Source of the DNA: Bosea thiooxidans
GTDB taxonomy: Bacteria; Pseudomonadota; Alphaproteobacteria; Rhizobiales; Beijerinckiaceae
Reading direction: 5' to 3'
Assembly (NCBI GenBank): GCA_943372485.1
Contig: CALRYW010000007.1
Coordinates: 4,936 to 68,935 of the forward strand
Length of the DNA stretch: 64,000 nucleotides
A program made the translations under genes and the position numbers. Shown here piece by piece: positions 20,561 through 36,845 of the stretch. The notes under the pieces are model-generated. The model saw only the letters and a list, made by a program, of their open reading frames with translations, searched no databases and was not told the origin of the DNA. Every line of letters starts with the position of its first letter. Position 1 is the first letter of the stretch.

Positions 20561-21604
20561 TCACCGCCAGGTCACGGGGCCGCCGCGGCGCGGGCCGGGC
20601 TTGACGCCGCCATTGGCCTTGAGGCCGCGCAGGATCTTCTCGGGCGTGATCGGCAGCTCGTCGACGCGCACGCCGACCGCGTTGTAGACGGCGTTGGCGA
20701 TCGCCGGCAGGACCGGATTGGCGCACATCTCGCCGGGCCCCTTGCCGCCATAGGGCCCGTCGGGCGCCGGGCGCTCCAGAACCGTGACGTGATAGGGCGC
20801 GATCTCGCCCGGCCCCGGCATCAGGTACTCGTTGAAGTCGCGCGGGCCATGGGCGGTGTCGGGATAATAGGGCTCGGGCGTCTCGTAGAGGGCGTGGCTC
20901 ATGCCCATCCAGGCCCCGCCGACGAGCTGCTGCTCGACCATGCGCGGATTGATTACCCGGCCGAGCTCATAGGCGCTGGTCATCCGGAGCACCTCGACCT
21001 CGCCGGTCTCGTCGTCGACGGCGACGTCGGCCACCAGGCAGGCATGGGCGAAGGCGGTGTTGGGGTTCATTTCGCCGGTTTCGGCATCCACCGCCGAGAG
21101 CGGGATCAGGAAGATGCCGCGCCCGGCGATGGTCTTGCCCTGCTTGAACTGCGCCGCCTGGGCGGTGGCCTTGACCGTGATCGAGCGCGAGGGCGCGCCG
21201 CGGACATGGATGTTGCCGCGCCCGTCGGTGACGAGGTCGCCGGCATCGACCTCGAGCTCCTCGGCCGCCGCCTCCAGCAGCACGCCGCGGGCCTCGCGCG
21301 CCGCGACGATGATGGCGTTGCCCATGCGATGCGTGCCGCGCGAGGCAAAAGAGCCCATGTCATGGGGGCCGGTGTCGCTGTCGGCAGTGTCGACATAGAC
21401 GTCCTCGACGGGCACGCCGAGCGTTTCCGCCGCGATCTGCCGCGAGACCTGCTTCATGCCCTGGCCGAGATCGATCGCCGAGAGCGCCACGGTGAACTTG
21501 CCGTCCGGGTTGGAATGGATCAGCGCCTGGCTCGGATCGCCGCCGAGATTCATCCCGATCGGGTAGTTGACGGACGCCATGCCGCGACCTTCGTGACGGG
21601 CCAT
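20561..21604 (-). CDS. Molybdenum hydroxylase, C-terminal ('medium') molybdopterin subunit
   Basis: Start trimmed to MARHEGRG; DLGQG, DMGSFASRGT, GQLVGG-like QQLVGGAWMG, GKGPGE with catalytic Glu, VDELPITPEKIL. Confidence 0.88.
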   Translation of the reverse strand: MARHEGRGMASVNYPIGMNLGGDPSQALIHSNPDGKFTVALSAIDLGQGMKQVSRQIAAETLGVPVEDVYVDTADSDTGPHDMGSFASRGTHRMGNAIIVAAREARGVLLEAAAEELEVDAGDLVTDGRGNIHVRGAPSRSITVKATAQAAQFKQGKTIAGRGIFLIPLSAVDAETGEMNPNTAFAHACLVADVAVDDETGEVEVLRMTSAYELGRVINPRMVEQQLVGGAWMGMSHALYETPEPYYPDTAHGPRDFNEYLMPGPGEIAPYHVTVLERPAPDGPYGGKGPGEMCANPVLPAIANAVYNAVGVRVDELPITPEKILRGLKANGGVKPGPRRGGPVTWR

Positions 21605-21605
21605 G

Positions 21606-23393
21606 TCAGCGCCTCCTGCCGAAGACGGATGAGAAGCGCACCGCGCCATGCTGGGTCTGCGCGGGTGCCGCCGGCGCCGGAGCTGGCGCGGGCGAAGGCG
21701 GCGTCGGGGGCGGCTGATAGGGTGGCGGCTGCTGGCCAGATACCGGCTGGTAGGGCGAGGGGGGCTGCGGCGGCGGAGAGGCCGGCTGCGCTGCGTAGGA
21801 CGGTGGCACGGCCGTTGCGGGGCGCGGCGCCTCGTAGCGCGGCACTTGCGTCGGTGCGGCACGCCCGTCGCGCGCGCCCTCCATCACCGGCTGCTTGCTC
21901 AAGGCGATGCGGGAGGTGCCGGCCGGCAGGGTCTGCGTCGGGCCTGAGTTGCGGCTGTCGGGCCGACCGATCTGGCCGCGCGCATCGAGCACGGTCGCTG
22001 GGATCTGCCCTCGCTCGCCGGCGCCGCCGCCGGTCAGGGACGACTGGCGCTGCGCCTGCTCGGAGATCGGCCAGTTCGCCTTCCCGGCCGCGACCTGGAC
22101 GCATTCGATCAGCGCCGTGTTCGAGGCCTTGCGCCGATGCGGCTTCATATCCCCATCGCGATAGGCGTTGAGGATCCGGAACTCCATCGGGTCCAGGCCG
22201 GCCGCTTCGGCCAGCCGGTCCATCTGGACCTCCAGCGCAAAATCCACCGCCGTAATGCCGAAGCCGCGCATGGCGGTGGAAGGGCAGCGATTGGTGTAGG
22301 CGACATGGACGTCGGAGGCGACGTTGGGGATCCAATAGGGGCCGGGTAGATGCGCTGTGCACTTGATCGCGGCATAGCTCGACAGCCGCGTATAGGCGCC
22401 GGCGTCGAAATAGCTGCGGATGTAGCGGGCGACGATGCGCCCATCGCGCATCAGCCCATCCTTGATGTAGATGCGCTCGGCCCCGCGCGGTGAGCCGGAG
22501 AGCATCTCCTCCTCGCGATCGAGCACGAAGCGGACCGGGCGCCCCGTCACCATCGCGCCCAGGACCGCCAGCGGCTCGGTCAGCGAGTCGACCTTGCCGC
22601 CGAAGCCGCCGCCGACCGTGCCGCCGATGAAATGCAGGCGGTTGGACTCGACCGCGACGATCTTCGCGGTGGTGCCGAGCGCGAAGAACAGACCCTGCGC
22701 GCAGGAATGGACGACGAAGCGGCCATTCTGCTCGGGCGCGGCGATCGAGCCGTTGGTCTCGGTCGGCGCATGCTCGATCGGTGACATCTGGTAGCGGTGC
22801 TCCAGCACCATGTCGGCGCCGGCAAAGGCGCGCTCGACATCGCCGAAGCGCAGCTTCTGATGGTCGAAGCGCTCGTGATACTCGAAGTAATTGGCGGGAT
22901 AGGTCTCGTTGACGACGGGCGCGCCGGGTTTGAGCGCCTCCTCGACATCGAAGACGGCGGGCATCGGCTCGTAGTCGATCCGGACCAGCGTCTTCGCCGC
23001 CAGCGCCTGCGCCTCGCTTTCGGCGATGATCGCGACGACGGGCTCGCCGACATAGTGCACCTTGTCGACCGCCAGCGAGGGCTCGTCGTCCTTGCCGAAA
23101 TTGATCAGGCTCAACAGCGTGTTCTTGTTCACCGGCACGTCCGCCGCGCGCAGCACGCGCTTCACGCCCGGCGCGCGCGCCGCGGCCGAGACGTCGATCG
23201 AGCGGATGCGGGCGCTGGCATGGGGGCTGCGCACCACCTTGAGATGCAGCAGGCCGTCGAAGCCATGATCGTCGAAATAGCGCGTCAGCCCGGTGACGTG
23301 ACCGGGCATGTCCTGACGCTGGATGCCCTTGCCGACGACGTTGAGATTGTCGTCGCGCTCGTCGGCGAAGAGGTCCTTGCGCATTTCCAGCAT
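21606..23393 (-). CDS. Molybdenum hydroxylase, N-terminal ('large') molybdopterin subunit with Pro-rich C-terminal tail
   Basis: Start trimmed to MLEMRKD; VVRSPHASARI, VGEPVVAIIA, GGGFGGK, DAGAY, AMRGFG; last ~100 aa are P/Q/A-rich. Confidence 0.88.
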   Translation of the reverse strand: MLEMRKDLFADERDDNLNVVGKGIQRQDMPGHVTGLTRYFDDHGFDGLLHLKVVRSPHASARIRSIDVSAAARAPGVKRVLRAADVPVNKNTLLSLINFGKDDEPSLAVDKVHYVGEPVVAIIAESEAQALAAKTLVRIDYEPMPAVFDVEEALKPGAPVVNETYPANYFEYHERFDHQKLRFGDVERAFAGADMVLEHRYQMSPIEHAPTETNGSIAAPEQNGRFVVHSCAQGLFFALGTTAKIVAVESNRLHFIGGTVGGGFGGKVDSLTEPLAVLGAMVTGRPVRFVLDREEEMLSGSPRGAERIYIKDGLMRDGRIVARYIRSYFDAGAYTRLSSYAAIKCTAHLPGPYWIPNVASDVHVAYTNRCPSTAMRGFGITAVDFALEVQMDRLAEAAGLDPMEFRILNAYRDGDMKPHRRKASNTALIECVQVAAGKANWPISEQAQRQSSLTGGGAGERGQIPATVLDARGQIGRPDSRNSGPTQTLPAGTSRIALSKQPVMEGARDGRAAPTQVPRYEAPRPATAVPPSYAAQPASPPPQPPSPYQPVSGQQPPPYQPPPTPPSPAPAPAPAAPAQTQHGAVRFSSVFGRRR

Positions 23394-23404
23394 GTTGGCC
23401 TCCC

Positions 23405-23887
23405 TCAGGCGCGGCGCAGGCCGGGCGAACCGGCGGCGGCGAGGATCGCGGCGACGATGGGTTCGTAGCCGGTGCAGCGGCAGATGTTGCCGCTGATCGC
23501 CTCGATGACCTCGTCGCGGGTGGGGTTGGGTTTTTTGTCGAGCAGGGCGCGCGCCGCCGTCAGCATGCCCGGCGTGCAGAACCCGCACTGCGCGGCGAAA
23601 TGCTCCATGAACTGCACCTGCAGCGGGTGCAGCTCGGGTCCATTGGCCATCCCGGAGGCCGTCTCGACCTGCCTGCCCTCGCAGGCGACCGAAAGCGTCA
23701 GGCAGGAGAGATGCGGCTCGCCATCGATCAGCACGGTGCAGACGCCGCAGGCTCCCTGGCCGCAGCCATATTTCGGGGCGAAGTCGCCCAGGCTCCGGCG
23801 CAGCGTGTCGAGCAGCGTCTCGGGCGCATCGACGAAGGCGGCGCGGTCGGTGCCGTTGAGGCGGAACTGGACGGGGATCTTGGCCAT
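23405..23887 (-). CDS. Molybdenum hydroxylase 2x[2Fe-2S] subunit
   Basis: KYGCGQGACGVCTV...SCL and QCGFCTPG...NICRCTGY. Confidence 0.95.
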   Translation of the reverse strand: MAKIPVQFRLNGTDRAAFVDAPETLLDTLRRSLGDFAPKYGCGQGACGVCTVLIDGEPHLSCLTLSVACEGRQVETASGMANGPELHPLQVQFMEHFAAQCGFCTPGMLTAARALLDKKPNPTRDEVIEAISGNICRCTGYEPIVAAILAAAGSPGLRRA

Positions 23888-23896
23888 GCGCGCTCC

Positions 23897-24718
23897 TCAG
23901 CGGGGCTCGCCGGCGAGCAGCCGGCCGAGATGGACGGGCAGCACCTCGCGGCGATACCACTCGCTGGCGATCGCATCGGTGGCCGGGCGGCAGCCTTCGA
24001 GCGCGGCCTGTTTTGCGGCGGCGATGGCCGCGGCATCGAGTGCCTTGCCCTCTAGGGACCGCTCGACGCCGCGCGCGCGGATCGGCGTCGGCGCCATCGC
24101 GCCATAGGCGACCCGCGCCTGGCTGACGCGCCCGCCCGCCTGCGGCAGATGCGCGGCGATCGACAGCACCGAAATCCCCTTCGGCTTGACCCGGCTGATC
24201 TTGCGGAAGTGGAAATCGCCGGGGCTGGCGGGTCGCGGGAACTGGATGGAGGCGACCAGCGCCGGCCCCATGCGCTCGCGGGCCGCCAGGAACTCCTCCA
24301 GCGGAGTCGCCCGCCCGGAACCGAAGCCAGACTGCACCACGACCTGTGCATCGAGCGCCAGCAGCGCCACGGTGAAATCGCCGTAAGGCGTGGGTGCGAA
24401 GAGATTGCCGCCGACACTCGCCATGTTGCGCACGGCCGGGCCGCCAATCGCACGGGCCGGCGCATGGAGAAAGGCGAGCTCGCGGCTGGCCAGGATCTGG
24501 CCCATCGTGACCCCGCCGCCGAACTCGATGCGGGCACCATGGGCCTCGATCCGCCGGAAGGCGGGATCGGTGACGCGCAGCAGCGTGCCCTCGGTCAGCC
24601 GGCCCTCGTTGACGTCGCGCATCACCAGCGTGCCGCCGCCGATCAGCACCGCCTGCCGGTCACCGGACAGGATGCCGGCGGCTTCGGAGAGCGTCGCGCA
24701 GCTTCTCACAGCGAGCAT
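23897..24718 (-). CDS. Molybdenum hydroxylase FAD-binding subunit
   Basis: LIGGGTLV, IGGPAVRNMASVGGNL, VAYGAMAPTPIRA, IASEWYR. Confidence 0.92.
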   Translation of the reverse strand: MLAVRSCATLSEAAGILSGDRQAVLIGGGTLVMRDVNEGRLTEGTLLRVTDPAFRRIEAHGARIEFGGGVTMGQILASRELAFLHAPARAIGGPAVRNMASVGGNLFAPTPYGDFTVALLALDAQVVVQSGFGSGRATPLEEFLAARERMGPALVASIQFPRPASPGDFHFRKISRVKPKGISVLSIAAHLPQAGGRVSQARVAYGAMAPTPIRARGVERSLEGKALDAAAIAAAKQAALEGCRPATDAIASEWYRREVLPVHLGRLLAGEPR

Positions 24719-24719
24719 G

Positions 24720-25172
24720 TCAGACCGCCTCCCCCGCGAGTTCCGGCAGGCGGCGTACCGCCTCGATGCCGTTGGTGTAGACCTCGTCGCCGACGATGCG
24801 GGCGAGCTCGGCCTCGCGGCCGCGGGGCGTGGTGAATCGGCTTTCCCAGTGCCAGAAGGCGCGGTTGCCGTCGGTCACCGGCAGCAGCCGGACATGGGCG
24901 ACGTAGTTGAAGAGCGGGATCGGCGTATCCAGCAGGCAGTAGCTGAAGGTCATTTCGAGGTCCGACAGCGTGAGGAGCTGCTCGCGCAGCTCGCTGCCGT
25001 CCTGCAGCCAGAAGCGGCGCACGCAGCCGATCCGGTCGGACGGGTGGCCGCGCTCGATCTCGCTCCTCGCGACGATCGGGTGCCAGCGGTCATGGCCGTT
25101 GAAGTCGCGCAGCACCGACCAGAGCAGGTCGACCGGCGCGTCGATGATCGTGCTGCGGACGACGTGAGGCAT
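24720..25172 (-). CDS. SRPBCC (Polyketide_cyc2 / MxaD / PYL-like) protein, copy 2
   Basis: LWSVLRDFNGHDRWHP, IGCVRRFWL, LREQLLTLSD, NYVAH. Confidence 0.88.
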   Translation of the reverse strand: MPHVVRSTIIDAPVDLLWSVLRDFNGHDRWHPIVARSEIERGHPSDRIGCVRRFWLQDGSELREQLLTLSDLEMTFSYCLLDTPIPLFNYVAHVRLLPVTDGNRAFWHWESRFTTPRGREAELARIVGDEVYTNGIEAVRRLPELAGEAV

Positions 25173-25175
25173 GCC

Positions 25176-25613
25176 TCATCCCCCGAATGCGCGCTTGAGG
25201 GCATCGAATCCGCCCTGGAAGACATTGGTGCCGATGCCCTCGACCAGCTCCGCCTCGCGCTCCGGCGCACAGTCGAAATCGGCCGACCATTCGATGAAGG
25301 TACGCTCCTGGTCGGTGATCGGCGTGAGCCGCAGCGTCGCAACGTAATTCGTCAGCGGCATCGGCGAATCCAGGATCGAGTAGGTGCAGAACATGTCGTA
25401 GTCGGAAAGGCCGAGCAGCTGCTCGCGCAGGCGATCGCCGCTGCGCAGCGAGAAGGCGCGGATGCAGCCGACCTTGTCGGCCGGCTCGCCGTTTTCGATC
25501 CGGCTTTCGGCGATACGCGGATGCCAGTTCGGCAGGCCGTTGAAATCGCGTACGCGGGCCCAGACCTTGGCGGCGGGGGCGGAGATGACGCTGGAGACGT
25601 AGACGCGGGCCAT
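25176..25613 (-). CDS. SRPBCC (Polyketide_cyc2 / MxaD / PYL-like) protein, copy 1
   Basis: VWARVRDFNGLPNWHP, VGCIRAFSL, LREQLLGLSD, NYVAT; clearly paralogous to its neighbour. Confidence 0.88.
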   Translation of the reverse strand: MARVYVSSVISAPAAKVWARVRDFNGLPNWHPRIAESRIENGEPADKVGCIRAFSLRSGDRLREQLLGLSDYDMFCTYSILDSPMPLTNYVATLRLTPITDQERTFIEWSADFDCAPEREAELVEGIGTNVFQGGFDALKRAFGG

Positions 25614-25625
25614 GATGCTGCAGCC

Positions 25626-28526
25626 TCAGGAGGTCTTGCCGGGGCCGGCTTCGGGGGCAGGGCCTTCGCCACCGGCCTTCGCATCGCCACTGCCTTTCGG
25701 CTTGGCTGGTTGGGCCTCCTTGGCGACGCGCTGCATGTCGGAGGCCTCGCGCATCAGCCCGCCCATCTTGGCGAGGTTGCCGCCTTCGATGCCGATCTCC
25801 TTCAGCACCTGGTCGATCATCGGCGCCTGGACGCGGTAGCGCAGCGCCGACTCGATCACCTCGTCGGTCGGCGAGCGCGCCGCGCCGCCGGCCCCGCCCG
25901 AGCCGCCGCCTCCGGCGAGTCCGTCGACATGCAGGATGCGGATGCCCTCGATCTTCTCCATCGGCTTGACGCTCTCGCGCACGATGCCCTCGATCTTGTC
26001 GAGCAGGCGGCGCCGGAACAGCCCGTAGCGGGCGCCGTCGCTGAGCACGTTCTCGGCTTCGTAGAGCAGCTTCTGCGCCTCGGCCTCGACGGTCCGGCGG
26101 ACTTTGTCGGCGGCAGCGGCGATATTGGATTCCTCCGCCGCCTTCTCGGCGAGTAGCACCTCGACGGTCTTGCGGCGCTTGGCGCCTTCGCTCTCGCGGA
26201 TCGTCTTGACCTGCTCCTCGGCCTCGACCGCCTTGGCGCGGGCGCTCTCGGCACTGGCCTGGGCGGCGGATTCCTCCAGCGACTTGGTGTAGAGCGCGAT
26301 CGCCTTGTCCATGGCGGCCGCCTCGACATCCCGCTCGCGGGCGATCTCCAGCTTGCGCAATTCGCGCTGGCGCCCCACGCGGGCCTCGTCGAGCCCGCGA
26401 TCCGACGAGATGCGGGCCCGCTCGACCTCCTCGTTTGACGCGATCTGCGCCTCCTGAAGGGCTTGTGTCCGGGCGATCTCGAGCTGTTCGAGCGCGCGCC
26501 GCCGCTCGATCCGGGCGGCCTCCAGGGCCTGTTCGCGGACGATGTCGACGGACTCGACCTGCTGCTTCGCCGCGATCTCGGCCTGGCGCAGCGCGCTGTC
26601 GGCGTCGGTGCGCTCGACCCTCTTGGCGGCGAGCACGATGGCTCGGTCCTCTTCCGCGACCTCGACGGCCTTCTTCTGGGCGATCTGCAGCATCTCGCGG
26701 GACTTCACCGAGTTGATGCGCTCTTCGTCCAGGCCAAGTTCCGTGGCGATGCGCCGGCGCTCGACGGTGTCGCGGCGCTTCAGTTCGGCGGTGTCGAGAT
26801 CGGCGTTGCGGCGGATCTCCAGCTCCTTCGTGGCGAGTTCCGCTGCGATGCGCTCGGCGGCGACGACCTTCTCCTGGGCGATGCGCGCGGCTTCCGTCGC
26901 CTCGCGCGCGGCGATTTCAGCGGTGTCGATCGCCTGGTTGCGGGCGATTTCGAGATTGCGGACCTCCTCGTCGCGGCGGATGCGCTCGCTGGCGACGCTC
27001 CGTTCCTGGCTGATGCGCGCCTTCTCGACGCTCTCGCGCGCCGCGATCTCGGCCGCCTCGATCGTCTCGGTCTGCTCGATCTCGAGCAGGCGCTTGCGCT
27101 GCTCCAGTGCGATGCGCTCGGCCGTCAGCACGTTTTCCTGAGCGATGCGGGCCTTCTCGACCGCCTCGCGGGCGGCGATCTCGGCTTCGTCGAGGGCGCG
27201 GTTGCGCGCGATGCCGAGTGCGCGGATTCGCTCCTCTTGGCCGATTCGGGCGGTGTCGACCGCCTCGCGCGCCGCGATGTCCTCCTGGTCGAGCACGCGG
27301 GTGCGCTCAATCTCGCGGTTGCGGATCTCTTGCTCGCGGATGATGCGCTCGGCGCTGATCGCGGTTTCCTGCAGGATGCGCGCCTTCTCGGTCGCCTCCC
27401 GCGCCGCGATCTCGGCGGCTTCGAGCGTCTGCGCGCGCTCGATTTCCTTCTGGCGGATGTCGCGCTCCGAGGCTATGCGGGCGGCGCTGATCGCCTGTTC
27501 ATTGGCGATGCGGGCCTTCTCGATCAGCTCGCGCGAGGCGATTTCGGCCTCCTCGACGGCCTGCGTACGCGCGATTTCCTGCTGGCGAATGTCGCGCTCG
27601 GAGGCGATGCGCGCCTCGCTGATCGCGCGCTCGTTGGCGATGCGCGACTTCTCGATCTCCTCGCGCGAGAGGATCTGCGCCTGCTCGGCTTCCGTATCGC
27701 GGGCTGCGCGCTCGCGGGCGATTTCGGCCCGCTGCACGGCGCGCTTGATCTCGATCTCGCGCTGCTGTTCGAGCCGCGCCGCCTCGCTGTCGCGCTCGAT
27801 GTCGAGCGCCTGGCGCTCGGCTTCGAGATTTCGGGTGCGGATGCGGATCATCGAGTCCTGCTCGATGTCGTTGCGCAGCTTCCGCTTATCCTCGATCTCC
27901 TCGATGATCCGCGTCAAACCGGCGGCGTCGAAGCGGTTGGACGGGTTGAAATACTGCAGATCGGTCTGGTCGAGATCGGTGAGCGCGACCGATTCCAGCA
28001 ACAGGCCGTTCTGGTCGAGCGCCTCGGCCGCAGCCTCCTTGACGCGCTGGACATACATTCCGCGCTGCTCGTGCATCTCCTCCATCGTCATCTCGGAGGC
28101 GACGGTGCGCAGCGCCGAGATGAACTTGCCCGAGAGCAGCGCATGGAGTTGGTCGGGCTGGAGCGTGCGGCGGCCGAGCGTGGCGGCGGCGACCGAGACC
28201 GAGTCTCGCTCCGGCTTCACCCGGACATAGAACTCGGCGTCGATGTCGACGCGCATCCGGTCGCGGGTGATCAGCGCGTCGTTGCTGGCGCGCGTCACGG
28301 CGAGTTGCAGCACGTTCATATTGACCGGCGTGACGTCGTGGATGATCGGCAGAACGAAGGCGCCGCCATTGATCACCACCCGTTCGCCGAACAGGCCGGT
28401 GCGGACGAAGGACACCTCCTTCGACGAGCGCCGATACAGCCAGTTCACCAGATAAACGACGATGGCGATGACGATCACCGCCACGATCAGCCAGAGGATC
28501 AGCGATCCGATCAGCTGTCCCGTCAT
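25626..28526 (-). CDS. Giant flotillin/SPFH-family protein (YqiK-like) with repeat-expanded coiled coil
   Basis: N-terminal TM helix, SPFH domain (FVRTGLFGERVV, ALITRDRMRVD, NGLLLESVALTDLDQT, NPSNRFDAAGLT), long E/R/A/I repeats, flotillin C-terminal PMEKIEGIRILHVDGL...ALRYRVQAPMIDQVLKEIG. Confidence 0.9.
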   Translation of the reverse strand: MTGQLIGSLILWLIVAVIVIAIVVYLVNWLYRRSSKEVSFVRTGLFGERVVINGGAFVLPIIHDVTPVNMNVLQLAVTRASNDALITRDRMRVDIDAEFYVRVKPERDSVSVAAATLGRRTLQPDQLHALLSGKFISALRTVASEMTMEEMHEQRGMYVQRVKEAAAEALDQNGLLLESVALTDLDQTDLQYFNPSNRFDAAGLTRIIEEIEDKRKLRNDIEQDSMIRIRTRNLEAERQALDIERDSEAARLEQQREIEIKRAVQRAEIARERAARDTEAEQAQILSREEIEKSRIANERAISEARIASERDIRQQEIARTQAVEEAEIASRELIEKARIANEQAISAARIASERDIRQKEIERAQTLEAAEIAAREATEKARILQETAISAERIIREQEIRNREIERTRVLDQEDIAAREAVDTARIGQEERIRALGIARNRALDEAEIAAREAVEKARIAQENVLTAERIALEQRKRLLEIEQTETIEAAEIAARESVEKARISQERSVASERIRRDEEVRNLEIARNQAIDTAEIAAREATEAARIAQEKVVAAERIAAELATKELEIRRNADLDTAELKRRDTVERRRIATELGLDEERINSVKSREMLQIAQKKAVEVAEEDRAIVLAAKRVERTDADSALRQAEIAAKQQVESVDIVREQALEAARIERRRALEQLEIARTQALQEAQIASNEEVERARISSDRGLDEARVGRQRELRKLEIARERDVEAAAMDKAIALYTKSLEESAAQASAESARAKAVEAEEQVKTIRESEGAKRRKTVEVLLAEKAAEESNIAAAADKVRRTVEAEAQKLLYEAENVLSDGARYGLFRRRLLDKIEGIVRESVKPMEKIEGIRILHVDGLAGGGGSGGAGGAARSPTDEVIESALRYRVQAPMIDQVLKEIGIEGGNLAKMGGLMREASDMQRVAKEAQPAKPKGSGDAKAGGEGPAPEAGPGKTS
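26325..27686 (-). repeat. Intragenic 132-bp (44-aa, 4x11) tandem repeats in the flotillin gene
   Basis: Units such as EEAEIASRELI-EKARIANEQAI-SAARIASERDI-RQKEIERAQTL; 27686-26664 = 341 aa = 31 consecutive 11-mers (seven 44-aa units plus one 33-aa unit), with more degenerate units to ~26325. Confidence 0.88.
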
Positions 28527-28554: not shown

Positions 28555-29430
28555 TCACTTCGCCTTGCCCGCCTTGCCGGCGTGCTTTTTGTTCGTGAGA
28601 TCGCGGCCGATGCGCTTGAAGGCGCGCGTCTGCTCGCGGATCGCGACCTCGACCGGCAGGCGCTCCATCGAGGAGGCGCCGTAGAAGCCGTGGCAGTGCT
28701 CGGTGTGCTTCATGATGAAGTCGGCATCCGCCGGCTCGGCGACCGGGCCGCCATGCACGAGGATGAGCGCGTCCTTCTTGACCGCGAGCACGGCCGCGGC
28801 CCAGGCATCGACCAGCGCCGGGCAGTCGGCGAGCTTGAGCGCCGTCTCGGCGCCGATCGCCCCGCCGGTTGTCAGCCCGAGATGGCAGACGATGATGTCG
28901 GCGCCCGCCTTAGCCATGGCGCGCGCATCGGCCTCGCAGAAGACGTAAGGCGTCGTCAGCAGGCCCTTCGCATTGGCGAGACGGATCATCTCGACCTCAA
29001 GGCCGAAGCCCATGCCGGTCTCTTCGAGGTTCTTGCGGAAGATGCCGTCGATCAGCCCGACGGTCGGGAAGTTCTGCACCCCGGCGAAGCCGATCCGCGC
29101 GACCTCGTCGAGGAAGACGTCCATCCGCCGGAACGGATCGGTGCCGCAGACGCCGGCGATCACCGGCGTGGTCTTCACCACTGGCAGCACCTCGGCCGCC
29201 ATCTCCATCACGATGGCGTTGGCGTCACCATAGGGCATCAGCCCCGAGAGCGAGCCGCGGCCGGCCATGCGGTAGCGCCCCGAATTGTAGATCACGATGA
29301 GATCGATCCCGCCGGCCTCTTCGCATTTGGCCGACAGCCCCGTGCCTGCACCCCCGCCGACGATCGGCTCGCCGGCCTTCACCATTGCCTGGAAGCGCTT
29401 CAGCAGGCTCTTTTTGTCGAAGCTCGCCAT
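28555..29430 (-). CDS. Phosphoenolpyruvate-hydrolase-like TIM-barrel protein (homologue of the Tm-1 C-terminal domain)
   Basis: Start trimmed to MASFDKK; [50 protein letters not shown]. Confidence 0.9.
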
Positions 29431-31703
29431 CAGGCCCCTCCAGCCTTCGCCCGCTCGCGCCGGCGCCCGGCATGCAGCGCGCGGAACTGCTGCACGAGGG
29501 CGGTGGCGAAGGCCGGATCGTTGATGTGATGCGGGCAGCGGATCAGCTGCCGCGTCGGCGTCTGGCGCACGGTCTGCTCCAGCGCCTGGAACAGGGCGGC
29601 ATCCGCGGCGGGATCGTGGAAGGGCTGGCCAGGCGCATCGAGCGCCGAGACGCCGCGCTCGGGCAGGAGGAAGCGCACCGGCCCCTCCATTAGGTTCAGT
29701 CGCTCGCCGATCCAGCGCCCCATCCGCGCATTCTCGTCCGCCGTCGTCCGCATCAGCGTGATCTGCGGATTGTGCGGATAGAGATTGCGGCTGCGATAGC
29801 GTTCCGGAACCGTCTCGGGCGCGAAGAAATTGACCATGTCGAGCGCGCCGACCGAGCCGATATAGGGAATGCGCGTGCGGATGATCGCGCCGAAGCGATC
29901 CTCCGTCGCCGGCAGGACGCCACCCATCATCAGGTCGCAGATTTCGGTGGTGGAGACGTCGATCACGGCGCCGACCAGGCCGGAGTCGACGAGCTTCTCC
30001 AGAGCGCGCCCGCCCGTGCCGGTGGCGTGGAAGACGAGCGGCTCCCATTCGGCCTCCAGCAGCTGCGAGACCTGCTTCACACAGGGGGTCGTCACGCCGA
30101 ACATGGTGAGCCCGACCAGCGGCTTTTCGGGCCCAGCGCGCCGCGTCGTCGCGGGCTTGGTCAGCTCGGCCAGCCGCGCCTTGGCCATCGCGGCCATCGC
30201 CCGCGCCCCGTTTCCGAGCACCAGCCGCGAGACCCGGTTGATCCCCTGCACATCGGTGACGGCATGCATCATCGTGATGTCGGCGGCGCCGACATAAGCC
30301 GCGACATCGCCCGAGGCCATGGTCGAGATCATCAGTTTCGGCAGCCCGATCGGCAGGGCCTGCATGGCGGGTGTCACCATCGCGGTCGCCCCCGAGCCGC
30401 CGGCGGAGATCACGCCGAGAACGCCCTGCTGGCGCGGCAGCCAGGCCTTGAACGCCTCTGTCATCGCCGCCACGGCCGCTCCGCGGTCGCCGGAGGCGAT
30501 GCCGGCCGAGCCGCGCGGATGGGCGAGCGCGATCTCCTGCGGGGTGACGTCGCCGCCGGCGCTGCGGCCCGAGGTCGAGATGTCGACGAGCCGCGCCCGC
30601 CCCCCCTCCGCCTGGATGAGATCGCGGATGAAGCGCAGCTCCTCCCCTTTGGTGTCGAGCGTACCGACGACGATGACATGCGGCTCGCCGCTGCCCGAGG
30701 GCGCATGGCGCCGGCCGTCCGCGACCCGGGCACCGTCGCGCGTCGCCAGCGTCGGGCGCGAGATCGTCCGCGCCTGGGCCTCGATCCGCGCCGCCGGGAC
30801 GGGCTGCGACCAGCGCGTCGGGATCACCGGATTGGCGTTGTAGACCCGCATCGGGCCGCTCGGCTGGGCAGGGGCGCGGGCCGTCCCGCTCTCCGACGTC
30901 GCCGCTGGTTCGGGCGCGCCGTCAGTTTCGTCATGGCTGTGCCGGCCGACGCCGAGCAGGCGCTGCTGCAGGTCGCGGTCGCCGGCCAGCGTCGCCGAGG
31001 CGATGATGCGGTTGATCCGGCCATTGACCATGATGGCGACCGGGTCCGACATTTCGGTCGCGACGCCGATGTTCTGCTCGATCACGAGAATCGCGACGTC
31101 GCCCTGCTCGGCGAGGCGCACCAGCATCTCCTCGACATGGGCGACGATGACGGGCGCGAGCCCCTCCGTCGGCTCGTCCATGATCAGCAGGCGCGGATTC
31201 ATCAGGAGCGCCCGGCTGATCGCCAGCATCTGCTGCTCGCCGCCCGAGAGCTGGGCGCCGCCATTGTTGCGGCGCTCCGCCAGCCGCGGGAAGGCTTCGT
31301 AGATCCGTTCCGGCGTCCAGGCCCCGCGCTTGGACCGTTGCATCAGCCGCAGATGCTCGTCGACCGTGAGCGAGCGCCAGAGCCGGCGACCCTGTGGTAC
31401 ATAGCCGATGCCGAGCCGCGCGATCTCGGCCGGGCTGCGCCCCGCGATCTCCTCGCCGAAGAAGCGGATCGAGCCCGAGCTGACCGGCACCAGCCCCATG
31501 ATCGCCTTGCACATGGTCGTCTTGCCCATGCCGTTGCGGCCGACCACCGAGAGCACGCCGCTTTGGAGCGTGAGGTCGACGCCCTGAAGCGCATGGGAGC
31601 GCCCATAAAACACGTTGAGACCGGCGATCTGCAGGATCGGCATGCCGACGCCGGGAGGGGCCTTGAGGCGCTCAGCCATGCCCGCCTCCGCCGTGACCGC
31701 CAC
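29430..31703 (-). CDS. LivF-type ABC ATPase fused to a Tm-1-like / UPF0261 domain
   Basis: aa ~20-250: [31 protein letters not shown]; linker; then [57 protein letters not shown]. One open frame. Start may be slightly downstream (MPILQ). Confidence 0.88.
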
Positions 31704-32475
31704 CGAGATAGAGCTCCTGGACCTCGGGGTCGCTCTCGATCTCCTGCGGCGCGCCTTCCTTGAAGATGCGGCCGTTGTGCATCATCGTCACGCTCTCGAC
31801 GACGCGCAGCGCCACATCCATGTCGTGCTCGATGATGATGTAGCCGATATGGCTCGGTAGCGAGGTCAGGATGTGGACGAGGTCGCGCCGCTCGGTGGGA
31901 GACAGCCCCGCCGCCGGCTCGTCGAACAGGATGAAACGCGGCGCGCCCGACAAAGCGAGCGCGATTTCGAGCTGGCGCTGCTGGCCATAGGCGAGCTCGC
32001 CGACCAGCCTGTCCTTGACGGCCGAGAGATGCACCGCCTCGACCAGCGTCTCGGCCGCATGGACCAGCGCGTCGTCCCGGCGCGGGCGCAGCAGCGAGAA
32101 GCGGTTCCGCGAGACGCCCCGGCAGGCGAGATAGACATTGTCGAGCACCGAAAGCCCGGTGAACAGCGACGAGATCTGGTAAGTCCGGCGCAGACCCCGC
32201 CGGATGCGCTCCTGCGGCGGAAAGGCGGTGACATCCTCGCCGAAGAAGCGGATCACGCCCGAACTCGGCGCGAAATCGCCGGTGACGCAGTTGAACAGCG
32301 TCGTCTTGCCGGCCCCGTTCGAACCCAGCACGGCCCGCCGCTCGCCGGGCTTCACCGAGAGCGTGATGTCAGTCAGCGCCGCCAGGGCGCCGAACAGCCG
32401 CGAGACCCCGCGCAGTTCGAGCGCGTTGGCGGAGCCCGCCGCCGTCAGCCGCTCGCGAGAGACGACCGCGCTCAT
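31672..32475 (-). CDS. LivG-type ABC ATPase
   Basis: Start trimmed to MSAVVS; GSNGAGKTT, LAYGQQRQLEIA, FDEPAAGL, IEHDM, VQELYLG. Confidence 0.92.
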   Translation of the reverse strand: MSAVVSRERLTAAGSANALELRGVSRLFGALAALTDITLSVKPGERRAVLGSNGAGKTTLFNCVTGDFAPSSGVIRFFGEDVTAFPPQERIRRGLRRTYQISSLFTGLSVLDNVYLACRGVSRNRFSLLRPRRDDALVHAAETLVEAVHLSAVKDRLVGELAYGQQRQLEIALALSGAPRFILFDEPAAGLSPTERRDLVHILTSLPSHIGYIIIEHDMDVALRVVESVTMMHNGRIFKEGAPQEIESDPEVQELYLGGGHGGGGHG

Positions 32476-33557
32476 GGCGCCCCTCCGCCTGCGCCCATCT
32501 GGCTGTCGCGGGCGTCGCGGCCACGGCGATAGCGTTCGCGCAGCCGCTGGAAGATGCCGATCAGCCCGTCGGGCGAGAACAGCACGATGACGAGAAAGCC
32601 GAGCCCAATCAGCAGCTGGTAGCGCCGCCCGTCGAGGCCGACACCCTCGAGCACATCGAGCGCGAAGGTGCGCAGCAGGACATAGACGAGCGCGCCGATG
32701 AAGGGGCCGATTGGGCGGCTCAGGCCGCCGACCACCGCGATGATTAGCATGTCGACGACGGGCCCGACGCCGGCCGTGCCGGGCGAGATCTGGCGCTGGT
32801 ACCAGACCAGCAACACCCCGGCGCAAGCGGCGATCAGCGAGGCGAAGGTATAGGCGGCGATGCGGTGCGCGACGACGTCGAAGCCGAGCGCCGCCATGCG
32901 GCGGGGGTTGTCGCGCGTGCCCTGCAAGGCGAGCCCGAAGGGCGCCCGCGAGACATAGATCACCGCGCCATAGGCCAGCGCCGCACAGGCCAGCGTCAGG
33001 TAGTAGAAGGGCAGGCTCTGGCCCCAGTCGATGCCGAGGAAGACCGGCGGCAGGATGCCGTTGAAGCCGCTGAAGCCGTTGAAGATCGTGTAGTTCTGCA
33101 GCGTCAGGTAATAGAACGCCGAGGCGATCGCGAGCGTGATCATGATCGTGTAGATGCCCTCGGTGCGCACCGAGAGTGCTCCGCTCAGCGTGCCGAACAG
33201 CGTCGCGACCAGGATCGCGACCGGCACCGCCGTCCACCAGGGCCAGTTCAGGCTGATCTGGGTGATGGCGCTGCCGCCGAGGATCGCCACGAGATAGCCG
33301 GCAAAGCCGGCCACCGTCATCTGGATCAGGCTGACAATGCCGCCATAGCCGGCCAGGAACATCAGGCTGAGCGCGACCATGCCCAGGATCATCGCATAGG
33401 CGATGATCTGGACGAGCCAGAACGGGCTGGCGATGGCGGGCATGACCAGCAGCAGTGCGGCCACGACCCAGAACGCCGTGCCCCGACGCGCAACCCAGTC
33501 CCCGACGCCCTCCTGGGGACGGGCGCGCTGCTCCAGCTCGAGGTCGGCGATGGCCAT
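32472..33557 (-). CDS. LivM-type ABC permease
   Basis: GYGGIVSL, GIYTIMITLA, FGLALQGTRDN, VVGGL...GPFIGA. Confidence 0.9.
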   Translation of the reverse strand: MAIADLELEQRARPQEGVGDWVARRGTAFWVVAALLLVMPAIASPFWLVQIIAYAMILGMVALSLMFLAGYGGIVSLIQMTVAGFAGYLVAILGGSAITQISLNWPWWTAVPVAILVATLFGTLSGALSVRTEGIYTIMITLAIASAFYYLTLQNYTIFNGFSGFNGILPPVFLGIDWGQSLPFYYLTLACAALAYGAVIYVSRAPFGLALQGTRDNPRRMAALGFDVVAHRIAAYTFASLIAACAGVLLVWYQRQISPGTAGVGPVVDMLIIAVVGGLSRPIGPFIGALVYVLLRTFALDVLEGVGLDGRRYQLLIGLGFLVIVLFSPDGLIGIFQRLRERYRRGRDARDSQMGAGGGAP

Positions 33558-33559
33558 CG

Positions 33560-34570
33560 TCAGCGCCTCGCCGCCAGGCCTTCGGGCCTGATCGCCAGCA
33601 CCGCGACCATGATCAGGAAGGTCAGCATCACCGCATAGGTCGGCATGTAGACTGAGCCAAACTGTTCGGCGAGGCCGACGATCAGCGCCCCGACCGCCGC
33701 GCCGGGGATCGAGCCCATGCCACCGACGATGACGACGACGAGCGAGGACAGCAGGATGCGCGTATCCTCGCCCGGCTGCAGCGACTGGAAGGTACCGCCG
33801 ACGACGCCGGCGAGGCCCGCGAGCCCGGCCCCGAAGGCGAAGACCATGACAAAGACCAGCTGCACGCGCACGCCGGTCGCCGACAGCATGTCGCGATCAT
33901 CCACCCCGGCGCGCACCAGCATGCCGACCCGCGTGCGGTTGAGCGCCAGCCACATCAGCACGCCGACGATGATCGCCCCGATCAGGATGGCGATGCGCAC
34001 CAGCGGGTAGGTCATCATCACCGCCTCGCCATTGCTGCGCAGCGCGACCGCCAAGGGCAGCGTCACCGGCCCGGAGAGCCAGTCCGGCGCGGTGACCTGG
34101 AAGGTGTCGCCGCCATAGCTCCACAAAAGCAGGTCGGCGAAGATGATCGAGAGGCCGATGGTGACGAGCGTCTGGCGGAGGTCCTGGCCCTCCATCCAGC
34201 GAAACAGCAGCACCTGCATGAGGATGCCGACCAGCGCCACGACGAGGAAGGCGACCAGCAGCGCCATCAGCCAAGAGCCGGTCCATTCGCCGACGCTGTA
34301 GCCGACATAGCCGCCGAACAGATACAGCGAGCCGTGCGCAAGGTTGACGTTGCGCATCAGCCCGAAGATCAGCGTGAACCCGCTGGCGACCAGGAAATAC
34401 AGCGCCCCCAGCGTGATGCCGTTGAACAGCGCACTCAGGAAGACGCGCTTGCGCCCGAACATCGCCTCCATCCCCGGCGTCCAGATCGAAAAGACGAGCC
34501 AGGCCAGGACGGCCAGCGCCAGCAGGATGATCAGCGACCAGATCGGGCGGCGGGCGACGAAATCAGACAT
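33560..34570 (-). CDS. LivH-type ABC permease
   Basis: Start trimmed to MSDFVA; GFTLIFGLMRNVNLAHG, VVIVGGMGSIPGA, RPEGL. Confidence 0.92.
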   Translation of the reverse strand: MSDFVARRPIWSLIILLALAVLAWLVFSIWTPGMEAMFGRKRVFLSALFNGITLGALYFLVASGFTLIFGLMRNVNLAHGSLYLFGGYVGYSVGEWTGSWLMALLVAFLVVALVGILMQVLLFRWMEGQDLRQTLVTIGLSIIFADLLLWSYGGDTFQVTAPDWLSGPVTLPLAVALRSNGEAVMMTYPLVRIAILIGAIIVGVLMWLALNRTRVGMLVRAGVDDRDMLSATGVRVQLVFVMVFAFGAGLAGLAGVVGGTFQSLQPGEDTRILLSSLVVVIVGGMGSIPGAAVGALIVGLAEQFGSVYMPTYAVMLTFLIMVAVLAIRPEGLAARR

Positions 34571-35435
34571 GGCAGGCCCGCAGCGACGGGCCGGACAGGG
34601 GCGGCGGCTGGCCGACACGGCGCAGGACCCGGCGATAATCCCGCGGCGCCATCCCCATATGGGCGGTGAAGAAGCGGGTGAAGACGCTCTGGCAGGAGAA
34701 GCCGAGCCTCTGGCTGATCTGCGTCACCGGATCGCCCGAGAGCACAAGGCGATCGAGCGCCGCATCGAGCCGGACGGTGTTGGCGAAGACGGTCGGGGTG
34801 ACGCCGACCTGCTCGCGGAAGAGCTTGAAGAAATGCGCCCGCGACAGCCCGGCCTCTCGGGCGACACGGGCGAGTGCACCCTCATGGGCGGGATGGGCCT
34901 CGATCAGACGCTGCGCCCGCACCACCCGCCGGTCGAGCACGCTTTCCGGCGCGACATGCAGCAGGGCGGAGGCGAGGTCCTGGCCGATTGGCTCGCTCGA
35001 GGCCTGGGCCAGCGCCATCAGTACCGGCGCCAGATTGAGATCGCGATGCGCCGACAGCAGCATCTCGACCGCCTCGTCGCGCCAGGAGGCGAGTTCGCGG
35101 GTGATCACCAGCTCGGACGCCGGGAAGGCGAGCGCACCGGGCGGCGTCATGGTCTGGGCCGCGAGCCATTCGGGCTTGAGATAGACGACGAGGAAGAGGC
35201 CGAGCGCGCCGGCCCGTTCCGGCTGGAAGTTGTGCGGCTCCCAGGGATTGATCGCCACCCCCATGAAGGGGTCGACCAGCGTGGCGCGGCCATTCACGGT
35301 GACGATACCGCGCGACCCTTCGAGGAAGAAGATCAGATGGGCCTCGCGGTGGGCGTGCAGCACCAGCGGGCGGTCGAGATCGTAGATCGCGACGCGGCCG
35401 AAGGGGCCGTGGCAGACCGCAACTGCGCGACTCAT
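34563..35435 (-). CDS. AraC-family transcriptional regulator
   Basis: Cupin-like HAHREAH N-domain; C-terminal VAREAGLSRAHFFKLF and LGFSCQSVFTRFF double HTH; start trimmed to MSRAVA. Confidence 0.92.
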   Translation of the reverse strand: MSRAVAVCHGPFGRVAIYDLDRPLVLHAHREAHLIFFLEGSRGIVTVNGRATLVDPFMGVAINPWEPHNFQPERAGALGLFLVVYLKPEWLAAQTMTPPGALAFPASELVITRELASWRDEAVEMLLSAHRDLNLAPVLMALAQASSEPIGQDLASALLHVAPESVLDRRVVRAQRLIEAHPAHEGALARVAREAGLSRAHFFKLFREQVGVTPTVFANTVRLDAALDRLVLSGDPVTQISQRLGFSCQSVFTRFFTAHMGMAPRDYRRVLRRVGQPPPLSGPSLRACHV

Positions 35436-35597
35436 GATGCCTCGCGAAAGTAGGTCCGACGCAGGAAGCTGGGCCTCGTCAGGCAAGCCGCCGGCTTGGC
35501 ACCACGAGATCCGCTCGCAGGCGCCGGGAGTCGGGACGTGACGGAAGCGGAGGGGGCACGCATGGCGCGGGTCCCCTCCATCGGGCGCTCGGGCGCC

Positions 35598-36845
35598 CTA
35601 TTTCTTGCATTCCGGATTGGTCCGGGACGGCAGGCCGATCGCCTTGAACGCCTCCAGCGAGAGGCCCAGCGTCTGCGTCACGTCCGGCACGGCACGCACG
35701 AACTTGTTGGTCAGATCGCCATTGGGCAACTCGGCGACCTCGGTGATGAAGGTCGTGGCGATCGCCTGCCGGTTGTCGTCGAGCCGGATCTTGCCGTTGG
35801 GCGCATTCAGTTCGACCTTGGCCAGCTCGGCGCGCAGCTTGGCGCCGCCATCCGAGAGGTCGCCCTTGACCTTGTCCATCGCGATCGAGAGCGCCATCAC
35901 GGCGTTGTAGTAGTTGGTCGCGAAGAGCGAGGGGCTGGCGAAGCGCTTGTCGGCCGGGAAGGCGTCCTGATAGGTCTTCACCCAGGCCTTCCAGCGCGGG
36001 TCGTCCCAGGCGTCGGCGACGCCGCCCGACGAGGGCGTGCCGACGAGCAGGCGCTTGGCGGCGCCCTTCGACGACAGCACGGTCTGGTCGACCATGATCG
36101 AGCCGCCGATGAATTTCGCCTTGCCGCCGGTCTGGCTGTACTGGTTCAGGAAGTTGACCGCGTCGCCGCCGCCCAAGCCGAGAAACACGGCGTCGACATC
36201 GTCGGGAATGTTGGCGATCACCGAGCCGAAATCCTTGGTGCCGAGCGGCACCCACTGGCGCTGGACGATCTGGCCGCCCGCCCGGCAATAGCCGATCGCG
36301 AAGCCGAAGACCTGCGTGTAGGGGAAGGAGTAGTCCTCGGCGATCACCGAGATCTTCTTGAAGCCCTTGTCCTTCAGCACGTATTCGCCGAGACCGGCCA
36401 TCCACATGGCACCATCGCTGTTGAAGCGGAAGAAGTTCGGCGAGGGATTGACGAAGGTCGTCTCGAGCGCCCCCGACGAGCCGTTGACCATGACGAGGTT
36501 CGGCACCGTCTTGCTGTAGTCGCGCATGGCGATGCCTTCGGAGCCGGAGAGCGGCCCGATGATGAGCTGCACCTTGTCCTGCTCGACCAGCTTGCGGGCC
36601 GCGCGCAGCGCGGAATCCGGGCTGGCGTCGGTGGCTGTGATGATGAATTCGAACTCGCGCCCGGCGATCTTGTTGCCGAGTTCCTTGGCCGCGATCTGGA
36701 CACCGCGGACACCGTCTTCACCGCCGGACGTCAGAGCGCCCGACAGCGTCGCCATCACACCGATCTTGAGTTTTTCCTGGGCATGCGCGGCCGGTGCAGC
36801 CGCGACGAAACAGGCCGCGACGGCGGCCGCAAGCGTCTTGCGCAT
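35598..36845 (-). CDS. LivJ/K-type (PBP1) ABC substrate-binding protein
   Basis: Sec signal; KIGVMATLSG, IIGPLSGSEG, AEDYSFPY, VPLGTKDF. Confidence 0.9.
   Translation of the reverse strand: MRKTLAAAVAACFVAAAPAAHAQEKLKIGVMATLSGALTSGGEDGVRGVQIAAKELGNKIAGREFEFIITATDASPDSALRAARKLVEQDKVQLIIGPLSGSEGIAMRDYSKTVPNLVMVNGSSGALETTFVNPSPNFFRFNSDGAMWMAGLGEYVLKDKGFKKISVIAEDYSFPYTQVFGFAIGYCRAGGQIVQRQWVPLGTKDFGSVIANIPDDVDAVFLGLGGGDAVNFLNQYSQTGGKAKFIGGSIMVDQTVLSSKGAAKRLLVGTPSSGGVADAWDDPRWKAWVKTYQDAFPADKRFASPSLFATNYYNAVMALSIAMDKVKGDLSDGGAKLRAELAKVELNAPNGKIRLDDNRQAIATTFITEVAELPNGDLTNKFVRAVPDVTQTLGLSLEAFKAIGLPSRTNPECKK

Follow-up and report, generated by a model that had tools for sequence, protein, structure and literature searches.

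What might two small, closely related SRPBCC proteins be doing between a flotillin and an oxidoreductase? The question is raised by a 64,000-nucleotide stretch of Bosea thiooxidans DNA (assembly GCA_943372485.1, contig CALRYW010000007.1, positions 4,936 to 68,935 of the forward strand; hereafter the window), in which two adjacent genes on the minus strand, SRPBCC-A (25176..25613) and SRPBCC-B (24720..25172), lie directly after a flotillin gene and directly ahead of the gene for the FAD subunit of a molybdenum (Mo) hydroxylase. We tentatively favor, without great confidence, the reading that the two proteins act as a heterodimer (A·B) that binds a small molecule of a platform formed by an importer, a kinase-like enzyme and the flotillin, and hands it on to the pathway's first soluble oxidoreductase.

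The two genes and their products

The preliminary description of this DNA, made from the sequence alone, placed two SRPBCC paralogues of about 150 residues at this position. Open reading frames (ORFs) for both are present on the minus strand, encoding the 145-residue SRPBCC-A (P0002), a PYR/PYL-like helix-grip protein, and its 150-residue paralogue SRPBCC-B (P0001), which stands alone here and is fused to a quinone oxidoreductase (QOR) domain in a sister clade. The four motifs listed in that description (RDFNG..WHP, GC.R.F.L, LREQLL.LSD and NYVA) were all found in both proteins. A and B aligned without gaps over 141 residues at 48% identity (BLASTP, E 4e-50), so their likeness is well above chance. 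Polyketide_cyc2 (PF10604; gathering cut-off 27.4 bits) matched each of them over its full length, at E 3.8e-28 and 99 bits for A (model positions 1-141 of 142) and at E 1.9e-18 and 67.5 bits for B (positions 1-139 of 142). The AlphaFold2 (AF2) model of A showed the helix-grip fold, in which a seven-stranded sheet wraps a long C-terminal helix, with a mean pLDDT of 97.5; in this model DSSP assigned a strand to residues 2-10, a helix to 14-21, six more strands and a helix to 117-144. Both proteins are acidic (pI 5.0 for A and 5.65 for B), and the pair contains 3 and 0 lysines. No hydrophobic segment was present in either, the top 19-residue Kyte-Doolittle mean being ~1.0, in agreement with the earlier statement that a transmembrane anchor is missing.

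The neighbors were also as first described: the flotillin gene (25626..28526, minus strand; PF01145 and PF15975) ends 12 nt before A, and the gene for the FAD subunit (23897..24718, minus strand; FAD_binding_5/CO_deh_flav_C, PF00941 and PF03450) starts 1 nt past the B stop codon. The gap between A and B is 3 nt, and Shine-Dalgarno-like GGAGG/GGGGGA sequences stand ahead of the A, B and FAD gene starts. No gene of this SRPBCC subfamily other than A and B occurs in the genome, and the tandem pair was kept in each related locus examined. A is the more conserved of the two paralogues; at Bradyrhizobium distance it is still ~78% identical, which places it within the three best-conserved proteins of the operon. 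The best-matching locus from outside this genome was that of a Bosea metagenome-assembled genome (MAG), at 100% identity. Public records label both genes 'SRPBCC family protein' and nothing more.

Family placement

The preliminary description compared the pair with CoxG. That precedent is real: CoxG of M. smegmatis carries menaquinone to CoxM and has a flexibly linked C-terminal transmembrane helix, as well as a basic patch of lysines at the mouth of its cavity (PMC12202499). CoxG also resembles A and B in being a small SRPBCC accessory encoded together with a xanthine-oxidase-family Mo enzyme, CoxD and CoxE, and in both cases the SRPBCC protein is a possible link between dehydrogenase and membrane. 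Kinship with CoxG was nevertheless not supported. A and B are soluble cytoplasmic proteins of a different Pfam family (PF10604, not PF06240), are acidic and unanchored, have no lysine patch and carry conserved polar and charged positions; they are also two paralogues instead of one protein, and their genes stand in front of the Mo genes and behind a flotillin gene. With hmmscan run to E 10, PF06240 (COXG) did not match A or B, and only PF10604 and a fragment of PF03364 (COQ10/Polyketide_cyc, which includes quinone-binding START proteins) were returned, the latter limited to residues 10-45 and scoring 22.8 and 17.6 bits, below its cut-off of 23.4. A whole-genome search with PF06240 found two other genes on other contigs (C95:332-757 and C76:12737-13156) and neither A nor B. 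These are genuine CoxG genes, and the one on C76 lies inside a 1003-aa open frame. A comparison of A with the genome's own CoxG gave a BLASTP E value of 17. Judged by sequence, A and B are not CoxG relatives.

Searches of the Protein Data Bank (PDB) pointed to another group. With single sequences, five uncharacterised bacterial proteins came out on top, followed weakly by hydroxynitrile lyase (HNL), lachrymatory-factor synthase (LFS) and many PYR/PYL receptors. A profile built from 41 diverse family members, the set that also underlies the residue conservation given below, matched PYR1 at E 3.6e-14 (residues 10-141), PYL10 at 1e-13, HNL of Davallia at 8e-11 and LFS at 3e-10; CoxG was not among the best 60 of its 77 PDB matches. 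Foldseek with the A model likewise gave PF10604 proteins as the top structural matches, ranking five structural-genomics proteins first and then ~40 PYL entries with TM-scores of 0.75-0.86. A search of the ESM Atlas yielded nothing past PF10604 clusters. The closest solved structures, YPO0625 (7TMU), XoxI of B. cereus (3CNW), Q6HG14 (3F08), Tfu_2981 (2LE1) and Q2Y8N9 (3P51), gave profile E values of 4.6e-32 to 4.1e-22 and TM-scores of 0.82-0.90 at 28-34% identity. All five are uncharacterised and, at ~30% identity, fall outside the subfamily linked to UPF0261 genes (see below), whose members are at least 43% identical.

The closest characterised relatives, in sequence and in fold, are the PYR/PYL/RCAR receptors (PYR1, PDB 3ZVU and 3K90; PYL10, 3RT0), with which A and B have PF10604 and the helix-grip fold in common. 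The plant receptors inhibit PP2C phosphatases in a ligand-gated manner and have SGLPA gate and HRL latch loops and an ABA-binding lysine. A and B differ from them in being only 18-24% identical to them, in an apparently shorter gate loop without an evident SGLPA motif, in having no PP2C gene among the ORFs of their operon, and in being encoded in tandem within an operon of catabolic appearance. The gate region of A reads SLRSGDRLRE, which seems shorter than the plant motif. VGC.R, the gate glycine, RE of strand 4 and LTNY appear by eye to correspond to PYR1.

Gene neighborhoods of the pair

We examined the 80 best loci in a collection of species-representative genomes, in which A is 76-100% identical to that of Bosea and which come almost all from Hyphomicrobiales. 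In this form of the locus, hereafter the Mo variant, B was followed by the FAD subunit in 77/77 loci with room downstream, flotillin stood directly ahead of A in all 67 loci with room upstream, and the A-B gap was 1-14 nt in 72 of 78. The position of the pair between flotillin and oxidoreductase, described at first for one genome, is thus that of a conserved and translationally coupled unit. A medium-chain dehydrogenase/reductase (MDR) domain was found in none of the 80 loci. The Mo variant occurs in Bosea, Aquabacter, Bradyrhizobium, Methylobacterium, Phreatobacter, Mesorhizobium and Rhizobium, in Hyphomicrobiaceae and Rhodobiaceae, and on a Yoonia plasmid. In one MAG locus (L090) the flotillin and FAD-subunit genes are separated by three SRPBCC genes in tandem, and a Yoonia locus (L144) has a 52-aa hypothetical ORF (12463-12621) between A and B.

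Within the sampled set, the second form, the QOR variant, was present in 11 alphaproteobacterial genomes belonging to 9 families, with A 60-72% identical; it was also seen in Variovorax paradoxus. Its upstream genes are orthologous to those of the Mo variant (binding protein 52-56% identical, LivG 59-77% and flotillin 41-62%), and its operon lacks the Mo enzyme after the fused B::QOR gene. A third form consists of single-copy relatives at 43-57% identity, which adjoin a free UPF0261 gene and a TIM-barrel gene and have no flotillin. The single copy in a second Bosea locus is accompanied by a sugar-type ABC system with ThuA, Gfo/Idh/MocA and cupin genes, and that in Azospirillum by electron-transfer flavoprotein (ETF) and FAD oxidase genes; in both contexts a divergent gene encodes a TIM barrel joined to a sigma-54 activator. 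UPF0261, the PEP_hydrolase TIM barrel and a single SRPBCC gene recur as a minimal triad, at 7948-12313 of L059 and at 5016-9474 of L156, the latter on an Azospirillum plasmid.

All subfamily members of at least 43% identity adjoin UPF0261 and PEP_hydrolase genes, as seen in the paired loci (L031-L042, L051-L058 and the 80 further ones) and in the single-copy ones (L043-L047, L059-L061 and Azospirillum); below ~40% identity the link is lost. Because the UPF0261/TIM-barrel pair is present beside paired and single-copy loci alike, it is the invariant partner of this SRPBCC subfamily, and flotillin is tied to the paired form. The oxidoreductase beside B is exchangeable, the Mo enzyme being one of at least two. 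The Mo-enzyme linkage is strict in one clade, gives way to QOR in the sister clade and is absent from the single-copy loci. The Mo enzyme, which the preliminary description had taken as the partner of A and B, is therefore a replaceable one. We also sought an orthologue of the Mo enzyme without A and B in 300 genomes of the class, and the only close match (G048) was a 35-58% identical paralogue without CoxD, CoxE, flotillin or A/B. As it is not a close orthologue, this case is uninformative on whether the Mo enzyme depends on the pair.

Fusion of SRPBCC-B to a Qor-type reductase

In 11 of the 11 sister-clade genomes B is fused to a Qor-type MDR. The fusion protein is 484-512 aa long, with B as its N-terminal domain and the MDR as its C-terminal part. 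The closest solved structures of the MDR part include 2-haloacrylate reductase (1.7e-75) and E. coli QOR (1.3e-67), together with the QOR proteins of Pseudomonas and M. tuberculosis. The linkers between B and QOR are 19-47 aa long, variable in sequence and mostly rich in Pro and Ala. In the AF2 model of one fusion (G281) both domains had pLDDT values above 90, the linker was below 50, and the pTM was 0.66. This low pTM and poorly ordered linker, despite well-folded domains, indicate in the model that the linker is a tether for a mobile domain and that the protein is not a rigid composite enzyme. As Rosetta-stone evidence, the fusion points to joint action of the SRPBCC module and a redox enzyme. 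The earlier suggestion of a link between the SRPBCC module and an oxidoreductase thus gained from the sister clade, where B is covalently joined to an NADPH:quinone-oxidoreductase-like domain.

Several other apparent fusions were rejected. Metagenomic gene calls joining B to the FAD subunit (P0207), flotillin to an SRPBCC domain (P0204, P0252) and A to B (P0126) were frameshift artefacts with Arg-rich out-of-frame stretches. A 456-aa open frame around B in another genome (G333) was also discarded as a fusion, B and the FAD subunit being separate ORFs in different frames. In the window, flotillin, A and B lie in one reading frame (24720-28526, minus strand), and the spacers consist of a stop codon plus 4 codons and a stop codon plus 1 codon. 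This shared frame accounts for false fusions such as P0126 and P0204, since a single sequencing error suffices to produce them. Clean double-domain relatives do exist (P0128, P0134, P0135 and others); relatives of the P0128 type were not found in 400 Pseudomonadota genomes.

Evolutionary history

A quick maximum-likelihood tree, with SH-aLRT support only and with moderately supported inner nodes, grouped all B copies in one clade (99) and the A copies of the Mo variant in another (99), and nested the Mo-variant B copies (93) among the QOR-fused ones. Because the B copies of both variants form one clade, the duplication that gave A and B is, on this tree, older than the split between the variants. 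The fused state was probably ancestral, with the QOR domain later swapped for the Mo operon. Identities across the cluster depart from taxonomy (L062-L141, L144, L145): the A protein of Aquabacter is 96% identical to that of Bosea, and one locus is labelled Competibacterales. In Yoonia, Shinella and Variovorax, moreover, plasmids or chromids carry the cluster. Together, these discordant identities and locations suggest horizontal spread of the whole operon.

Conserved positions and the putative pocket

Among the 41 family members W18, F24, R52 and G59 are invariant, and S7, W30, P32, E40, G49, E64, L66, Y78, T100, W109, F113 and G135 are near-invariant; the cysteine of the GC.R motif varies across the family. 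RDFNG, WHP, VGC.R, G59, RE.LL, Y78 and NY.A are common to A, B and the single copies and occur in both variants. These identical conserved positions in every context argue for one kind of ligand throughout the subfamily and not for a ligand specific to each pathway. The conserved positions include the charged or polar R52, E64, Y78 and H31. In PYLs the equivalent polar residues line the pocket and bind the ligand without being catalytic. If R52, E64, Y78 and H31 line the cavity in the same way, the pocket would not be of the purely hydrophobic, quinone-binding type.

The operon in the window

The genes of the operon are given here in their 5' to 3' order on the minus strand, to which all of these features belong. 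A LivJ-type ABC importer comes first (31672..36845), comprising a binding protein, an AraC-type ORF, two permeases and a LivG-like ATPase. The AraC-type regulator ORF, read by eye from the sequence, lies at 34563-35486 between the binding-protein and permease genes; in the QOR variant the importer genes run in the order permeases, binding protein, ATPases, and the AraC-type ORF was not matched there. Next are an ABC ATPase that carries, as a fusion, a kinase-like UPF0261 domain of the Tm-1/MarK type (29430..31703; PF00005, PF06792 and PF23189), the only UPF0261 gene in the whole genome, and its partner, a PEP_hydrolase-like/TBST TIM-barrel protein (28555..29421; PF09370, E 6e-128). The flotillin that follows is 966 aa long, with one N-terminal transmembrane helix and a long coiled coil. 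After A, B and the FAD subunit, the Mo hydroxylase continues with a 2Fe-2S subunit (23405..23887; PF01799 and PF00111), the N-terminal part of the Mo large subunit (21606..23396; hammerhead and MoCoBD_1, PF01315 and PF02738), which has a Pro-rich tail and a conserved terminal peptide, and the C-terminal part of that subunit (20561..21601; MoCoBD_2, PF20256, E 2.5e-59). Further downstream are genes for a CoxD-like MoxR protein, a CoxE-like VWA protein, an Amidohydro_2 protein, an MBL-fold protein and a fusion of SMP-30 with isochorismatase. Intergenic gaps in the operon are mostly 1-28 nt.

The tail of the N-terminal part (21606-21700) and its counterparts in L051-L141 consist of a Pro-rich linker of variable length followed by the peptide HGAxRFSS[VI][FS]G(T)RRR in ~65/72 loci. 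This peptide stands directly ahead of the start of the C-terminal part and may complete the fold instead of serving as a docking tag. In one locus (L130) the Mo large subunit is unsplit, as a chain of 890 aa.

A possible ligand hand-off and its alternatives

In the hand-off that we tentatively favor, the importer, the kinase and the TIM barrel would bring in and modify a small, partly hydrophobic molecule at a patch of membrane organised by flotillin. The A·B heterodimer would take up a small, partly polar and probably aromatic molecule in its pocket and bring it to the pathway's first soluble oxidoreductase, which would be the four-subunit Mo hydroxylase in Bosea and the Qor-type NADPH reductase flexibly tied to B in the sister clade. 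The constant position of the pair beside an oxidoreductase, or fused to one, makes it probable that a small molecule is handed to that enzyme. We infer a heterodimer because A and B are strictly co-inherited and translationally coupled and because clean double-domain relatives occur. Aromatic acids are frequent ligands of the LivJ-type binding proteins of Rhizobiales. The one characterised member of UPF0261, MarK, is an ATP-dependent kinase of phenolic aromatics (PDB 9MPY; PMC12624787). MarK has the UPF0261 domains of the invariant neighbor of A and B, and is a counterpart of this neighbor and not a homologue of A and B themselves; it differs from the operon's predicted kinase in being a stand-alone homodimer without a TIM-barrel partner, an SRPBCC protein or a flotillin.

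Two points weigh against this hand-off. The conserved Arg/Glu/Tyr set is also found in the catalytic relatives LFS and HNL, so that binding and catalysis are not separated by it. The single-copy relatives, too, do without flotillin and without a directly coupled oxidoreductase, so that the transfer to a redox enzyme may have been added later.

Much of the same evidence would fit A and B, or one of them, being enzymes that convert the product of the UPF0261/TIM-barrel pair, for example by an elimination, isomerisation or cyclisation with phosphate as the leaving group, ahead of the oxidoreductase. The invariant R52 and the near-invariant E64, Y78 and W30 are kept in A, B and the single copies, the profile reaches LFS and HNL, and A is very highly conserved. 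The universal association, moreover, is with UPF0261/TBST and with no single oxidoreductase, and fusions of consecutive enzymes, as B::QOR would then be, are common. We still consider an enzymatic role unlikely, since no reaction can be named, the same polar positions bind ligand without catalysis in PYLs, and two paralogues that both keep the site, with a long flexible tether, would be superfluous for a simple enzyme. More improbable, in our view, is a CoxG-like shuttle that takes a respiratory quinone from the flotillin patch and presents it either to the Mo hydroxylase, at its FAD site, or to the fused QOR, and so couples a soluble dehydrogenase with respiration. Quinone would be the only ligand that this FAD site shares with a Qor-type NADPH:quinone reductase, the operon contains CoxD and CoxE without CoxG, and the flotillin ahead of the pair in every locus, the 1-nt gap to the FAD gene and the menaquinone precedent all agree with such a role. 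It is opposed by the placement of A and B outside the CoxG family, by their acidity, paucity of lysines and want of a transmembrane helix, and by the conserved Arg, Glu, Tyr and His, which are ill suited to a purely hydrophobic pocket if they line the cavity. It would also leave the link to importer and kinase unexplained, and single-copy relatives occur with UPF0261/TBST and sugar-type or other genes in loci that have no flotillin.

A regulatory role in the manner of the plant PYLs, which act on PP2C phosphatases, appears to us the least probable of these. A and B would then be ligand-gated regulators in which binding of a metabolite shifts the gate loop and modulates the kinase-like pair, the importer or the oxidoreductase. 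Their kinship with PYR/PYL/RCAR would suit this, a bacterial PYL homologue binds plant PP2Cs (PMC12717121), and the TIM-barrel family provides the sensor domain of the sigma-54 activators beside the single-copy loci. No PP2C gene, however, was seen among the ORFs of the operon, which already has an AraC-type regulator ORF; the gate loop is, by eye, shorter than in PYLs, and a variable, flexible tether to QOR would be unusual for an allosteric domain. Returning to the preliminary description, which proposed a lipophilic carrier of electrons or substrate, we find that its substrate half fits better and its quinone or electron half less well, because A and B are not CoxG, have neither anchor nor lysine patch, carry conserved polar positions and have UPF0261 and the TIM barrel as invariant partners. 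A broader statement of the carrier, in which a PYL-family heterodimer docked at a dedicated flotillin is mobile and takes a hydrophobic or amphipathic ligand, either an imported substrate or a quinone, from importer and kinase to interchangeable soluble oxidoreductases, seems to us somewhat doubtful, if less so than a purely enzymatic role.

Significance

The operon of importer, kinase-like enzyme, flotillin and SRPBCC pair is widespread and unstudied; we found no published account of it or of A/B function in the literature on UPF0261, PF09370 and the TIM-barrel signal transduction domain. What is new is an oxidoreductase-linked SRPBCC accessory from a different family, which is paired, unanchored and linked to flotillin. 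Whether shuttles of the CoxG kind also work for other enzymes, soluble dehydrogenases among them, is a question raised in a 2026 review on START proteins of bacteria (PMC13525633). The pair is either an independent second START-fold shuttle or a warning that SRPBCC genes beside Mo enzymes are not CoxG by default. The operon is present in culturable genera (Bosea, Bradyrhizobium, Mesorhizobium, Variovorax and Azospirillum), and the QOR that is fused in one clade and the Mo hydroxylase that is free in the other amount to a natural comparative experiment.

Bacterial PYR/PYL homologues have been discussed as ancestors of the plant abscisic acid receptors, and only their PP2C binding has been studied, without regard to genomic context (PMC12717121). 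The subfamily described here gives these homologues a conserved genomic context and candidate partners. Plant Tm-1-like proteins, which combine UPF0261 with a TIM barrel, and plant PYLs have each been reported as bacterial acquisitions (PMC5028733, PMC12717121). In the bacteria studied here the UPF0261, TIM-barrel and PYL-like families are encoded by adjacent genes. As a weaker possibility, plant PYLs and Tm-1-like proteins may descend from neighbors in such an operon.

To our knowledge, hardly any client proteins have been defined for bacterial flotillins. Behind the flotillin gene, every examined locus encodes this one pair of small proteins, which makes them candidate flotillin clients. If A and B are indeed a mobile carrier, they would represent the CoxG-like principle with an independent origin in another SRPBCC family. 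They would also give bacterial PYL homologues their first native role, and no client of a bacterial flotillin would have been named before them.

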